Positions 48,877-59,680 of a DNA stretch of 64,000 nt are shown here, one piece after another (positions within the stretch are counted from its first letter, which is position 1; every line of letters starts with the position of its first letter). The notes beneath the pieces were generated by a model that was not told where the DNA came from, ran no database searches, and saw only the letters and a program-made list of their open reading frames with translations. Origin of the DNA: Microbotryum violaceum (lineage: Eukaryota); assembly GCA_001244265.2 (NCBI GenBank), contig CDLV01000017.1:434001-498000 (forward strand), given 5' to 3'. A program made the position numbers and the translations under genes.

Positions 48877-49127
48877 TTGCTTACTTTTCTTAGGAGCAAA
48901 TTCGATTGGCTCCGAAGTTCATCGATGTGCGACCCCGCCGACTCGCGAGACGTCCGCGATTAATTTCCAAACGTCGATCGCAATAAGTGTCCTGCTCAAG
49001 CCACGCTCACGCGGCTTCCTGCGTCGTGGGTTCCCTGCGGTTCGATAGGCACTTGTGCCTTCCCTCTGACTCGGGGTAGGCAAGTACCTGACGATCAGCA
49101 TTACGCCTAGTTTTCATGGTCGGTGGC

Positions 49128-49342
49128 AGTTGGTGTGTTGGGAATGAGGGTTAGGAATGGCGCGTTCATTGGTAATCTGTTTAGAAGCGCTCGTCTGTTT
49201 AGTGAAGCCTGGCGATTCGCACCAACCGTTGTCTTCTCTCCACGGTTGGATTACACGCTCGTCAGGTACGCATGTTTAGCTTTACAGCCGCTTTCGCTGC
49301 AATCAACTCACGGTTGGATTACACGCTCGTCAATCTCTTATT
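49128..49342 (+). repeat. 5' LTR of Copia C (internal 24-bp direct repeat at 49241-49264 and 49309-49332)
   Basis: Nearly identical to 59102-59315. Confidence 0.92.
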
Positions 49343-49350
49343 TGGTAGCG
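49343..49350 (+). promoter_or_regulatory. Primer-binding site of Copia C, complementary to the tRNAiMet 3' end (Ty1-type)
   Basis: TGGTAGCG directly after the LTR; the Ty1 PBS begins TGGTAGCG. Confidence 0.7.
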
Positions 49351-52300
49351 TCTGTATTGCCGCAAGGCACAGATCCGCACGCAGAAAAGACGCAGCGCAT
49401 ATCCAAGATGGCTACGACCACGGTGAATTCCGGGTCCGCAACTCATCGCGGCCTTATGGGCGACCTGTATGGCAATGTCGACGCCACAAATTGAGGAACG
49501 GCCAAGGATCGACTCCAACGGGTGTTGGAGGGCGATGGCCGGTTCAAGCATGTCACGACCGAACTCAGCGTTGGCCCCGAGCCCGAAGAGTCCGAGTTCA
49601 CCCACCCGTACGCTGGGTGGCTCCACTGTGGCCGACGTAGCCACGTTCCGTACACAACTTCGGAACTACCGTCATGACGTCGACGACCTCGATCAAGCCT
49701 TGGCGCAGGCCCGCAACATCTTGTTCGTGTGCCTGGGGGAGGCCACGTTCGCGCGCATCGCAGACCAGCCAACGCACGAGCTGTGGGCGGCCCTCGATAA
49801 GGATCTTGGCGCCGCATCACACGACTTCGAGCGGTCGGCGAAACTCGATGCGCTTTTTCAATACCAAGCTTACGTCGATGGAGACCCTCTCGACCCTTGG
49901 TTGTCGCGCTTCAACCGGCTGTTCATCGATCTCAACGCCGCGCATGTTTCCCGCGACAAGGCCTACCAGCGCGCCAAGATCGACGGGGTCAAGTACACGC
50001 AAGCTGAGTTTGACAAGTGGGTTCCGCCGCCTGCGTTGTCGGAAGGCATCCGCATGGACCTCTTGAAAGCGAGAATGCCACGGCCTATTGTCACGGTTAT
50101 CGACGCCCTCGGCCCTATCCCGTCGCTCAGTGATGTGGAGGGCGCGATTCGTCGCGCGGCGATGTCTCGCTCTTCCGGCACCGACGTCGCCGAAGCCCTC
50201 GCGGCAAAGACTCAGGGTCGTCGCAGGCGCCCCGCTCGTTCGTCAGGCAAACCGAAGTCCAGCTTTCTCTCGGCTTCGAAGGTACCGGGTCTCGTGGACA
50301 AGTGGCCGCACGGGGTTGCGCAGAACGGTCGCCTGAGGCTGGGCCCGTCGCAGTGTCGGAAATGCTAGAATGTACCGTCCCCTCGACCAAACTGTCCCGT
50401 CGCCGGGTTGCCGTCTTAGCCAAGCATAACATCTCCATCGGCGCGGCCGAGGCGATGGCGCTCGTGGCTGAATACGGTCCCGACCCATCGGTTGACGACG
50501 ACTCTTACGAGAACTATTTTGCCGAGGTTGCCCTTGACACCGAAGTCTCTGCGCTGTACTTGCACGACGGTCCCCGCTACCTCCTCGACTTGAGGGCGAC
50601 GCGCCACATGACCACTCGTCGGGATCTCTTGGTCGACTTCCAGCCTTTCACGACGGAGCGGGTGCGCGTAGTCGGCGCTTTCAAGTCCAGCGCCATGGCT
50701 GTCGGCAAGGGCACCCTTCGCTTTGACGCCAATGGGGCGCCTCTCGAGCTCCGCGACGTCCTTCTTGTCCCGGGTCTGTCCGCCGAGCTCGTCTCTCTTG
50801 CCAGTCTCATGAAGGATGGGTACCAGCTGTCTGGGATTTGTGACACCGCGGGCGAACACTCTGGTCTCACCGTCTCGGGCCCGGCTTCGAGTCTCACCTT
50901 CGCTCTCGATCGCAACCACTACGTTCTCCAGGCGAGTCCGGCCTCACCTCCTCTGGCGGATCACCAAGCGCTGACAGCCACCTCCTTGCCTACAGATGTA
51001 GTGCTCTGGCATCAGCGTTTGGGTCATCTGTCCTGGGGTCGTTTGGTAGAACTTGCTAAGTCGGGCGACATTCCCCTCGACATCTCTGCTGTAACCCGGT
51101 ATCGACTTCGTCTCCTTGATCAGTGCGACGCCTGCTGCTCCGCAAGGCCGTGTCTGCCCCCAGTCGTGAGGCTGCCCACCACCCCGCCGACGCACCTTTC
51201 GCTCGGGTCTTCGCCGACGTGTGGGGGCCTTCCCCTGTCCCTGCTCTCTCCGGCGTCCGATATCTGTGCGGTATCACGGATGAGTACTCGCGTTTCCGCT
51301 GGGCTCACGGCATTCGGCTCAAGAGCGAGGCTTCGTCCGTACTCAAGGGCTTCGTTGCGATGTCAAAGATCCAGTATGCTGGCTCGGGAGTGGCGACCTT
51401 GCGCATGGATAGGGGAAGTGAGTTCGTCAACAACAACCTCCGGGATTGGCTTGCTGAGCGGGGCATTTTTCACGAGCTATCCACGGCATACGAGCACGGT
51501 CAGATGGGCATACAGGAGCGGAGTTGGCGCACGATTTTCAACTCTGTAAGGGCGTGGCTTCATCGTTCGGGACTGCCGTCATCGCTGTGGGAAGAGGCTG
51601 CGCAGGCGGCCATCTACGTTATCAACCTCCTCCCGTCGTCGCCTCTGCAGCAGCGCACCCCTGATGCCGTTCTTCACGCCGCTGCGAGTCCCGTTACGTC
51701 CACCCGTCGTCCCCGCATCAATCGTGTCAAAACCTGGGGCTGCGCCGCCCAGGTACCGTTCGCTCCCGAACAACGTTCCAACAAGCTGGCTCCGCGTTCG
51801 CGCCTGTGCTACTTTGTTGGGTACTCTTTGCGCTCTAAGGCCTGGCACTTCTACGACCCGGTTGGCAACAAGGTTTTCGAGTCGTCTCAGGCCAAGTTCT
51901 TTGAAGATTGCTTCTTCCCCGCCGCAGCAAACCCTGTACCTACTGTTGTTGCGCCCGCCATTCTGTCCTATCCGTCCGTCCCGCGCAGAGTTCCTCCGCC
52001 TGACCTTCCCCTTGACGACTACAATACTGTCAATCCTGCGGGCGTCGCACCCGCCGTCGCGGCTGCTCCCGCTGTTGCCCCCGCCGTTGCTGCCCCACCC
52101 GCGGCTGGTCCGGTCGACATTGTGGCCCCACCTGTCCCGCCCTCCCTCGTGTTCTCCAACCCGGGTCCGGCGAACGCCCCTCCTGTGGGTGATCGTTCCA
52201 CTCGTGCTCGTTGCCCCCCTGACTACCTGGGTTTTGCCCGCGCGGCTCACGACTTGGAGTTCGCCGCGCACGCCTCCGTCTCGATTGAGGACTTTGACGA

Positions 52301-52773
52301 GGACGATCCCGACGTCCAGCTGTACTCGTACGAGGAAGCGACTGCCTTTCTTGCCAAAGTCGACAAGGACAACACCCCTTCCGCTCGTGCGGCACTTGCT
52401 GGTCTGTTCCGCGACTACTGGCTGGCGGCCATGGCAACCGAGGAGGGCGCACTGGCGGCGAAGCAAACATTTTCCAAGCCGCTTTGTCCCCCTTGCGGGG
52501 CTATCATAATTGGCAGTATGTGGGTCTTCATGGTGAAGCGCAACGCCGAGGGCAAAATCGTAAAGTACAAAGCCCGCCTCGTTGCGCGTGGGGATATGCA
52601 GAGGCGGCGGGGTGAGCAAATTGACTCATTCTCGCCTACTGGCCGCGCCGCCTCCCATCGCCTGCTGCTCGCCCTTGCCGTTGAGAACGAGTGGGAGACC
52701 CGGCAATTTGACGTCTCGTTGGCATACCTCAACGGCAATCTCGGTGGGACGGAGATTTACATGCGTCTGCCCA

Positions 52774-52867
52774 CTAGTTTATTCCCCTTTTACGGAAAAA
52801 TAAAAAGCTAGTTGTTTTTCCGTAAAAGCTTGTTCCTTTGTTATTCCAGTTTTTTTTAGTATTTTCA
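52774..52867. other. 94-bp AT-rich foldback insert in the Copia C RT
   Basis: 14-bp inverted repeat cttttacggaaaaa / tttttccgtaaaag; removal restores [18 protein letters not shown]. Confidence 0.7.
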
Positions 52868-58393: not shown

Positions 58394-58410
58394 GTTCAGG
58401 AGGGGGAGGG

Positions 58411-58653
58411 TGCAAGGCCTGAGGCCTTTGCCCGAGGTACAATGGAAGGCGATAGAACTTTTGGCTTAGTTGAATAGCTTGCGCGCGCCTAGAACCTCCC
58501 TTGGCTTTCGCCAGCTCACTGACCCGAGGTTTTAGGTGGGTGCCCCTTTTCTCATATGTGTAGTATGCTAGCTCACTGACCCAAGGTTCTAGTGAATTAC
58601 TATTGTTTGATCCTGTCTATCGTTCTGGAGCACCGCTGCACGCGGTGCTTCCA
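58411..58653 (+). repeat. 3' LTR of the Gypsy (243 bp)
   Basis: Follows the PPT; contains a 23-bp near-direct repeat at 58513-58535 and 58570-58592. Confidence 0.95.
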
Positions 58654-59101
58654 CGACCCTGTGACCCGCCGCAGCGTCTCGGGTTACGTCTTCACGTGCG
58701 CTGGCGGGGCAATCTCCTGGATCGCCAAACGTCAGACTCTTGTCACTCTGTTGAGCACCGAGGCCGAATATTTGGCCATGTCGTACGCCGCTCTTGAGGG
58801 GATCTGGTTGCGTCGGCTGCTGGCCGATCTTGGTTTTGAGCAGACATTGCCGACTCGTCTGAGGGGTGACAACCAATCGGCTATCACTCTGGCCAAACAC
58901 CCGGCTTTCCATGCTCACACCAAACACATCGGGATCCATTTCCACTTCATCCGAGATCACATTGCGGAGGGCACAATCGAGATGGTCTGGGTGCTCACGG
59001 GCACCATGGCTGCGGACGTCCTCACCAAAGGGCTCGGAACTCAGAAGCACTATCAGTTTGTACACGCGATGGGGCTTATCGATTCATTGCGTGAAGGGGC
59101 G

Positions 59102-59315
59102 AGTTGGTGTGTTGAGAATGAGGGTTAGGAATGGCGCGTTCATTGGTATTAGTTTAGAAGCGCTCGTCTGTTTAGTGAAGCCTGGCGATGCGCACCAACC
59201 GTTGTCTTCTCTCCACGGTTGGATTACACGCTCGTCAGGTACGCATGTTTAGCTTTACAGCCACTTTCGCTGCAATCAACTCACGGTTGGATTACACGCT
59301 TGTCAGTCTCTTATT
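59102..59315 (+). repeat. 3' LTR of Copia C
   Basis: AGTTGG...CTTATT, followed by GTGGC. Confidence 0.92.
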
Positions 59316-59680
59316 GTGGCATGTATGTTCTCTTGCATTCAAACTTGGCTAGGACGCTATAGGCACATTTGCTTTGTCCTCGAGCTGATGGGAAAGAGTG
59401 AGCAGGCTGGCGGAAAGGGGCCCATCGGGAAAACTCGACGCCGCCGATGCCTAATGAGAAGCAAGGGATTGCGACCGACCCAGCAACAAGCAAACTTGCG
59501 TGATGCCCCAGCACTCCGTTAGAAACTGTGTGCAGCCTTATCGATGAACGTCGCCGGCCCCTGCCTGACGAGCCCCTTTCGGGGGTGCCTTGCTGTGCTC
59601 TCCTAAAATATCACGGCCCTCGGAAGCTCCGTTCACTATCGGGGAAGACAACGTGTTGGCATCGAAGACCTGCTCCCTGG

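Follow-up and report, generated by a model that had tools for sequence, protein, structure and literature searches.

The 64,000-nucleotide stretch of Microbotryum violaceum DNA analysed here, which is referred to throughout as the window, contains a retrotransposon of the Ty1/Copia type whose long terminal repeats (LTRs) begin with AG and end with TT. The assignment to Ty1/Copia follows from the order of the Pfam domains (Pol_BBD, gag_pre-integrs, rve, SH3_retrovirus, RVT_2), which corresponds to the sequence protease, integrase, reverse transcriptase (RT) and RNase H with an RT of the RVT_2 type; the C-terminal RNase H part of pol lies past an inserted element, and was recognized by its tblastn alignment to an intact relative, P0001. 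The two direct LTRs and the 5-bp target-site duplication (TSD) that characterize the group are also present, while the TG...CA termini that are usual in it, though not universal, are replaced by AG...TT. The element spans 10.2 kb because a 5085-bp Ty3/Gypsy element, on which the preliminary description of this locus was silent, is nested inside it. The features of the element and of its neighbours are collected in Table 1.

Table 1. Coordinates, in the numbering of the window, of the AG...TT-ended Copia element and of the surrounding features
Feature	Position	Strand	Remarks
Copia element	49128-59315	+	10.2 kb including the nested Gypsy; about 5.1 kb without the insert
Left TSD copy GTGGC	49123-49127	+	abuts the 5' LTR
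5' LTR	49128-49342	+	215 bp; starts AGTTGGTG, ends CTCTTATT
Primer-binding site (PBS) TGGTAGCGTCTG	49343-49354	+	TGGTAGCG… type; directly after ...TTATT of the 5' LTR
Internal part 1	49355-53563	+	leader, gag, protease-like beta-barrel, integrase, most of RT
Integrase active-site loop codons M129-G-I-Q132-E133	51504-51518	+	E133 is the catalytic Glu of D,D35E
Internal part 2	58659-59101	+	C-terminal RNase H part of pol
Polypurine tract (PPT) GAAGGGGCG	59093-59101	+	directly before AGTTGG of the 3' LTR
3' LTR	59102-59315	+	214 bp; same ends as the 5' LTR
Right TSD copy GTGGC	59316-59320	+	abuts the 3' LTR
24-bp direct repeat CACGGTTGGATTACACGCTCGTCA inside each LTR	49241-49264 / 49309-49332; 59214-59237 / 59282-59305
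Nested Ty3/Gypsy	53569-58653	+	5085 bp; RVT_1, RT_RNaseH, Integrase_H2C2, rve, SH3_Tf2-1
Gypsy LTRs	53569-53754, 58411-58653	+	TGCAAGG...GCTTCCA
Gypsy PPT AGGAGGGGGAGGG	58398-58410	+
Gypsy 5-bp duplication CGACC	53564-53568, 58654-58658
Second Copia, other lineage	20319-25098	-	canonical ends TGTTAGAAG...GTTGCAACA; LTRs 190 bp, 97.9% identical
Second Copia 5-bp duplication CTCCT	20314-20318, 25099-25103
Third Copia	15862-20336	+	Retrotran_gag_2, Pol_BBD, rve, RVT_2
Long open reading frames directly upstream of the AG...TT-ended Copia	44049-47838	-	one with RVT_1, 45620-47062
Host-gene fragment between elements	4544-5608		AAA_11 helicase-like
Host-gene fragment between elements	8787-10361		PINIT/SP-RING (SUMO-ligase-like)
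Host-gene fragment between elements	28501-29886		eEF1A-like GTPase
Host-gene fragment between elements	32377-33630	-	MFS transporter
Host-gene fragment between elements	35840-37072	-	F-box/WD40

The preliminary description had placed the LTR ends at AG and TT, with a duplication GTGGC immediately outside them and with the PBS and the PPT abutting them on the inside, and each of these placements was borne out. The two LTRs are 96.3% identical over 215 aligned columns, and the identity stops exactly at the AG and TT ends on both sides: the bases upstream of the repeat are ...GTGGC at the 5' copy and ...GGGCG at the 3' copy, while those downstream are TGGTAG... and GTGGCA..., respectively. The motif TGGTAGCGTCTG adjoins the 5' LTR, and GAAGGGGCG adjoins the 3' LTR. 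The former is taken to be a PBS of the class that anneals to the 3' end of initiator tRNA-Met, the core TGGTAGCG presumably being that of Ty1; beyond this core, the match to the initiator tRNA depends on the yeast tRNA, and the 64-kb window contains no tRNA genes with which the PBS could be compared.

The same description held that an internal TG...CA framing of the LTRs leaves no duplication. This was evaluated over 2352 combinations of start offset (-12 to +15), end offset (-15 to +12) and duplication length (4 to 6). Ten of these framings produced a perfect duplication, which reached 5 bp or more only in the AG...TT frame and in its two trivial displacements, one with a 6-bp GTGGCA and an LTR that begins at G, the other with a 5-bp TGGCA. 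None of the TG...CA framings among the combinations tested yielded a duplication, and the identity between the LTRs runs beyond them. The window copy taken alone leaves one ambiguity in the AG...TT frame, in that the first A could form part of a 6-bp duplication GTGGCA. The assignment of this A to base 1 of the LTR is favoured by four observations: the inverted repeat of a related metagenome contig (L001), two contigs from sequencing run X9, a purine implied by the protein P0001, all of which are described below, and the 5-bp length of the duplications that flank the two other elements of the window. Beyond the two LTRs, no further occurrence of the LTR was found within the window.

The inner boundaries of related copies can be read from their proteins. 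The pol open reading frame (ORF) extends over the PPT and 27 bases into the 3' LTR (59093-59128), so that GAA GGG GCG is translated as E-G-A and the first six bases of the LTR, AGT TGG, as S-W. The C-terminal tails of annotated relatives therefore report the junction between PPT and LTR, and protein databases become usable as a proxy for LTR starts in this group. The closest named proteins come from M. saponariae (94% identity), M. silenes-dioicae (74% and below) and M. intermedium (51%). A tail of the form E-G/E-x-S-W is present in 14 distinct proteins among the 294 relatives collected. Twelve of the 14 are from Microbotryum or closely similar (eleven named proteins from three species, together with the partial protein P0295), and the remaining two are P0016, from an assembled public run, and P0155, from Phenoliferia; the same Ser-Trp tail is found in P0017, the protein of the metagenome contig L001. 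The six bases AGTTGG directly after the PPT persist over protein identities from 94% to 39%, while there is variation in the residues that follow.

The PBS side is accessible in the same way, as several gene models begin within the 5' LTR. The reading ...GWITRSSVSYLVASVLPQG, shared by seven of the 18 clade-A proteins examined, corresponds to a translated ...TCAGTCTCTTATT followed directly by TGGTAGCGTCTG (TCAGTCTCTTATT followed by TGGTAGCGTCTGTATTGCC), and the junction between LTR and PBS is readable as ...SSVSYLVASVLPQG in seven Microbotryum proteins. Given these recurrences on the PPT side and on the PBS side, both inner junctions are family-wide. The N-terminus of P0001 also reports an outer junction: it starts in a different flank (…IHHLE) and continues as VGVLGMRVRN from LTR base 2, and because the Glu codon that precedes base 2 is GAA or GAG, base 1 must be a purine. 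Two other readings of this kind were set aside. The C-terminal ...LIVALV of P0001, considered as a translation of the flank GTGGCA and hence as an orthologous insertion, was rejected when tblastn aligned it to the LTR end and PBS, and the C-terminal read-throughs of P0008 and P0009 (…TLVSLLFHQ and …TLVSTIIHQ), considered for the 3' boundary, were too ambiguous at the protein level.

The nearest relative outside Microbotryum is encoded by L001, a contig of 5566 bases whose protein is 39% identical to the window Copia over the integrase-RT stretch and 50% identical over the RT-RNase H part. Its DNA reads GAAGGGGAG followed by AGTTGGAGGG at the PPT, so that the PPT is followed by AGTTGG, and GGCCGCAACT followed by TGGTAGCGCC at the PBS, so that GCAACT is followed by the PBS. 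The inverted ends of its LTR are AGTTG...CAACT, and since the general LTR consensus is TGTTRNR...YNYAACA, L001 differs from this consensus in the terminal base pair alone.

Further copies were sought in sequencing runs. The stretch is present in 19 of 21 listed runs, which carry three species labels and come from six studies. The 5' flank is bridged to the LTR by contigs of labels A and B, which means that the insertion is common to species labels and is therefore old, and related copies occur in contigs of three species labels. The contigs of four runs were compared with the window in a thin sample of 24 of the 154 loose ends and 15 of the 20 joints. Two X9 contigs have at least 255 unrelated bases upstream and are alike from exactly 49128. 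A contig present in X11 and X9 stops matching exactly at 59315; its continuation, 13 other letters and then an LTR-like unit, is probably due to an LTR variant that has an additional tandem unit. An X1 contig that reaches the LTR from the flank breaks off at 49157, after 30 LTR bases; this is the break expected of a 31-mer graph if the repeat begins at 49128, the value k = 31 being our assumption for the X1 assembly graph. No empty-site joint across the whole Copia was seen in the 15 of 20 joints. Other LTR variants replace a segment around 59147 and around 49270-59271.

Placement of the element in a Copia phylogeny, which the preliminary description had proposed as a check, was carried out by maximum likelihood on 48 proteins and 458 amino acids of RT-RNase H from which the tail was excluded (IQ-TREE quick search, LG+G4, SH-aLRT support). 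Two sister clades, A and B, together comprise 31 rows (support 100). In this tail-free tree the Ser-Trp tail marks clade A (13 rows, support 100), where it is present in 12 rows, the remaining one being a spliced gene model that ends ...REGAS. Clade B (18 rows, support 89) has Cys at the same place in 16 rows, Tyr in one and Ser-Trp in one, P0155. The relatives next in similarity, at about 40% identity, belong to Sporobolomyces, Rhodosporidiobolus, Rhodotorula and Phenoliferia. They have tails of the form ...E/K-G-x-C followed by W, E or a stop, and since Cys is encoded by TGT or TGC, the LTRs of these elements, as of clade B, would, to judge from the protein, start with TG. The clade-B protein P0064 starts with MVAP, which would fit CA followed by TGGTAGCGCC and is a single weak hint.

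A search of 1.84 billion representative proteins with the L001 protein as query produced no clade-A lineages beyond Microbotryum, P0016 and P0017, and no relatives were found in the viral contigs and genome contigs scanned. Among the best 80 of 179 metagenome loci with related sequences, L001 alone is close, the others being 23-35% identical; many of those with an identifiable LTR pair have a plant-type PBS, TGGTATCAGAGC, the LTR pairs mostly have TG..CA ends, and no clade-B DNA is included. Two of the distant plant-type Copia loci have ends of other kinds: L037 is bounded by TA...TA, with the 5-bp duplication ACCTC flush against these ends, and L011 appears to end in ...TTAT beside its PBS.

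Inspection of the integrase, another check that had been proposed, identified changes that are specific to clade A. Its D,D35E triad consists of D33, D97 and E133, counted in the ORF with its start at 51120. When 12 clade-A, 14 clade-B and 18 outgroup sequences were aligned, the residues of five columns proved to be fixed in clade A and essentially missing from the other sequences, and two of these columns flank the catalytic Glu. At the position four residues before it (E-4), Met is found in 12 of 12 clade-A sequences, as against Asn in 30 and His in two of the 32 others, and at the position directly before it (E-1), Gln is found in 11 of 11 clade-A sequences, as against Ala, Val, Ile or Ser in all 32 others. 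The loop motif could be found 235 times in the 294 collected proteins. The combination Met...Gln accounts for 12 of these motifs, all of them in clade A, and E-4 in the remainder is Asn (213), His (3), Asp (3), Ile (2), Lys (1) or Ala (1). Met...Gln and Ser-Trp occur together in all seven clade-A proteins whose tail is unspliced. The loops of the other two Copia elements in the window read QNGQVER and QNGTVER, and that of the nested Gypsy reads TDGRSER.

The best phmmer match among PDB sequences is the Ty1 integrase 7z0h (E = 2.6e-17), whose loop is AHGVAER, and the phmmer alignment pairs M129 with S217, Q132 with V220, and E133 with E221 of the integrase of PFV, the prototype foamy virus. In the HIV-1 (human immunodeficiency virus type 1) integrase the catalytic Glu is E152, so that E-4 corresponds to Q148. 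We take PFV S217 to be the equivalent of this residue, with which the presence of S217Q variant chains among the PDB matches is consistent. HIV-1 Q148 is, with Y143 and K159, one of the residues reported to form crosslinks with the viral DNA at its terminal nucleotides (PMC3185514). The correlation between loop and ends, which is confined to a single branch, suggests that the Met and Gln substitutions may reflect an adaptation of the integrase to the new end.

The explanation that best accounts for these results, to which we assign a probability of roughly 0.7, is that the element is an old, inactive Ty1/Copia retrotransposon with true AGT...ATT ends, that such ends are a trait of a small Copia clade made up of several Microbotryum families and two environmental relatives, and that the integrase of this clade has adapted to them via Met and Gln. 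According to this explanation, reverse transcription would start at the initiator-tRNA-Met-type PBS flush with U5 and plus-strand synthesis at the PPT flush with U3, in which case the linear cDNA would end in AGTTGG...CTTATT. The integrase would have joined the ends of the window copy untrimmed, making the 5-bp duplication, and an absence of trimming may be the rule for the family. An ancestral TGTTG...CAACA would have had its terminal T:A pair swapped to A:T, with the cleanest form of the change in L001, and as a consequence of the swap the joined strand would end in ...CT or ...TT rather than in ...CA. The clade-A integrase would have adapted by a change from Asn to Met at E-4 and from Ala, Val or Ile to Gln at E-1. 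The more specific proposal that a Microbotryomycete Copia clade independently evolved errantivirus-like attachment (att) ends by the swap of the terminal pair, and that the two loop substitutions either enabled this swap or were selected by it, is put forward tentatively. The suggestion in the preliminary description of a fungal Copia lineage with a different att end is thus largely supported as regards the ends and the lineage, while the altered specificity of the integrase is a plausible interpretation of the loop residues.

Of the other explanations, the least credible is that the boundaries are misplaced, GTGGC having matched by chance and the true LTR being an internal TG...CA repeat. TG does occur 3, 6, 8 and 11 bases from the left end and CA 10 bases from the right end, but the identity of the LTRs reaches the AG and TT bases and ends there on both sides, the PBS and PPT abut these bases, and the TG..CA framings lack a duplication, whereas the chance of a flush 5-bp match at one fixed offset is 1 in 1024. 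It is also very improbable that a parent with mutated ends produced a dead-end copy of an otherwise canonical family; the window copy is indeed dead, with frameshifts and a nested Gypsy, but the inner junctions recur in at least 7 relatives on the PBS side and in 14 on the PPT side, in several species as well as in L001, and related copies are contained in contigs of three species labels. A further possibility, improbable though less so than these two, is that AGT and ATT are extra nucleotides of the cDNA that are normally trimmed, as 2 nucleotides are in retroviruses, the window copy being unusual in having escaped this step. The removal of 3 nucleotides from the AGT-TG...CA-ACT of L001 would expose a canonical CA, and the pair of outer junctions with its duplication has been seen at the DNA level in the window copy alone; L001 itself is a contig that is circularly collapsed (164-base overlap) and has no flanks, so that its ends are known from the inner junctions alone. 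Trimming of this kind is at odds with the right end in Microbotryum, which reads …CTCTT/ATT and has no CA three bases in, and with the trimmed framing of the window copy, which has no duplication. It is equally at odds with three junctions in other copies: the two X9 contigs with different flanks that are alike from exactly 49128, the contig that stops at 59315, and P0001, in which the reading passes from a different flank directly to LTR base 2, the base before it being a purine.

A more serious competitor, although it too is on balance unlikely, accepts the A...T ends of the clade and holds that the integrase is simply tolerant of them, the terminal pair having drifted and Met and Gln being unrelated markers of the lineage. 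Several observations lend weight to it. Many plant Copia families have non-TG..CA ends (10.1101/137141; PMC5659011). The right end is TTATT in Microbotryum and CAACT in L001, a drift that argues for a loose constraint on the subterminal bases. The Ty1 integrase has His at E-4 and canonical TG..CA ends, so E-4 cannot be a simple code for the end base, and because the changes in integrase and ends lie on a single branch they amount to one evolutionary event whose association is not open to statistical testing. Two further points count against the favoured explanation: P0155 has a Ser-Trp tail and yet falls in clade B, on a long branch beside two Phenoliferia rows, in a partial protein that does not include the integrase loop, and the Ser codon could be TCN in most relatives, AGT being verified in the window and in L001. 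Simple tolerance is opposed by the retention of AGTTGG after the PPT over the range of protein identity given above while the later residues vary, by the near invariance of Asn at E-4 outside clade A (213 of the 235 motifs), and by the contact that the E-4 position makes with terminal viral DNA in retroviral integrases (PMC3185514).

The statement in the preliminary description that nearly all Copia LTRs have TG...CA ends is fair as far as "nearly all" is concerned, but the exception described here is not unprecedented. Non-TG..CA ends in Copia are already known from plants, and the phenomenon itself is not new. The plant survey reports seven motif types in 42 of 50 genomes, with 89% of the elements being Copia and a mean LTR length of 272 bp, and notes that the first T alone seemed invariable (10.1101/137141). 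The ends reported include TG..GA, TA..TA, TA..CA, TG..TT and AA..CA, and the named cases are Tos17 (TG..GA), AtRE1 (TA..TA), TARE1 (TA..CA) and the TGTT and AACA subfamilies of Rosaceae (10.1101/137141; PMC5659011). In Rosaceae the TG..TT and AA..CA ends are flush with duplications of 4-6 bp, and integrase divergence has been proposed for the TT-ended elements (PMC5659011). The window element, which by its non-TG..CA ends flush with a 5-bp TSD and its coding domains is a non-TGCA element in the sense of LTR_retriever, resembles the elements described in these sources in its short LTRs (215 bp) and in ends that are flush with a perfect duplication, and among them there are precedents both for a 3' end in TT and for a 5' start with A. 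Unlike them, it has both ends changed together (AG...TT, or AGTTG...CAACT in L001) and a basidiomycete host, and in its case a clade is defined by the trait, which coincides with two substitutions in the active-site loop of the integrase. No AG..TT motif is named beside the plant types, TGTT and AACA in the cited text of 10.1101/137141 and PMC5659011. It is this combined change of first and last base in a fungal Copia clade, together with the changes in the integrase loop, that sets the present case apart from the known ones. The literature search, which covered neither most subscription journals nor Repbase Reports, turned up no Copia element and no fungus for which ends of this kind have been described.

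The likeness to the errantiviruses of Drosophila that had been pointed out earlier agrees with published descriptions, in which the LTR ends of these elements are AGT/AnT (PMC5408687) and those of the Zam clade are AGTTA..TAATT or TAACT, as against the general consensus TGTTRNR...YNYAACA (PMC3601003). The AGT...AnT pattern of the gypsy, ZAM and Idefix groups is matched by the window element (AGT...ATT, or AGTTG..TTATT) as well as by L001 (AGT...ACT, or AGTTG..CAACT). In other respects the window element does not belong to the errantivirus genus of the Metaviridae: errantiviruses have the Gypsy-type order RT-RNase H-integrase, an env gene and an RVT_1-type RT, whereas this element has the Copia order integrase-RT-RNase H, RVT_2, a 5-bp duplication and no third ORF. 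The resemblance of the ends would be convergent. With canonical Ty1/Copia elements such as Ty1 and the second Copia of the window, on the other hand, the element shares domain order, RVT_2, PPT, a 5-bp duplication, and cDNA ends that are blunt and adjoin the PBS and PPT directly, and the subterminal repeat xGTTG...CAACx is kept in L001; the differences are the terminal pair, which is A:T instead of T:A, and the loop, which is MGxQE instead of NGxAE (HGVAE in Ty1).

A terminal CA has been treated as nearly a rule for integrase substrates. The element is in itself an ordinary dead retrotransposon, and its interest lies in the att variant and the paired change in the enzyme. The change of the ends is minimal, amounting to one base pair per end in L001; it is clade-wide, and it coincides with changes at two loop positions beside the catalytic Glu. 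Should the more specific proposal made above, of att ends evolved independently through the swap of the terminal pair, be correct, enzyme and DNA end would have changed as a natural pair, and the case would show by which integrase residues the terminal nucleotide is read in the Ty1/Copia superfamily. The finding has a practical side as well, since Microbotryum is a model for the accumulation of transposable elements on mating-type chromosomes, and pipelines or filters that require TG..CA would miss these Copia families or misplace their boundaries. LTRharvest and RepeatModeler were used in a study of Microbotryum whose cited text states no motif setting (PMC10502011).

Relative to the intact P0001, the window Copia has at least 6 frame changes by tblastn, and is a dead copy. 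An insertion or duplication of about 95-100 bases seems to be present in its RT at about 52772-52875, where 94 or 101 bases are missing from contigs of other copies and the alignment with P0001 is gapped as well. In the comparison of 48600-59800 with the contigs of the four runs, transitions dominate the differences, with C>T the commonest in each of the runs (in X1, 96 C>T and 61 G>A, as against 4-12 for each transversion); a change from TCG to TTG is also one of the 8 differences between the two LTRs. Judged from these base changes, the transition bias would fit the mutation resembling repeat-induced point mutation (RIP) that has been reported for Microbotryum.

The nested Gypsy and the second Copia both show TG..CA ends with flush 5-bp duplications, from which it follows that the method detects canonical ends where they are present. 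Contigs from three of the four runs join 53563 to 58654 directly, with 5 ambiguous bases, so that there are other copies of the Copia without the Gypsy insert. The summed contig depth is several-fold higher over the Gypsy than over the Copia in all four runs, and the Gypsy appears to be the more abundant family. Its LTRs are unequal (186 and 243 bp), the 3' one carrying approximately 57 extra bases that resemble an internal duplication around 58536-58565.

The second Copia, whose integrase loop is QNGQVER, has the PBS GGTTATGAGCTC, which we take to be of the kind that pairs with an internal, anticodon-loop region of the initiator tRNA-Met, as in Drosophila copia, as opposed to its 3' end; on this assumption two Copia lineages with different modes of priming occur in one window. 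The third Copia stops where the second starts and thus appears to be interrupted by it, and no LTR pair for the third was found between 13000-16000 and 25099-28500. The RVT_1-containing ORF upstream of the AG...TT-ended Copia represents another retroelement, and the Copia therefore sits in a cluster of transposable elements.

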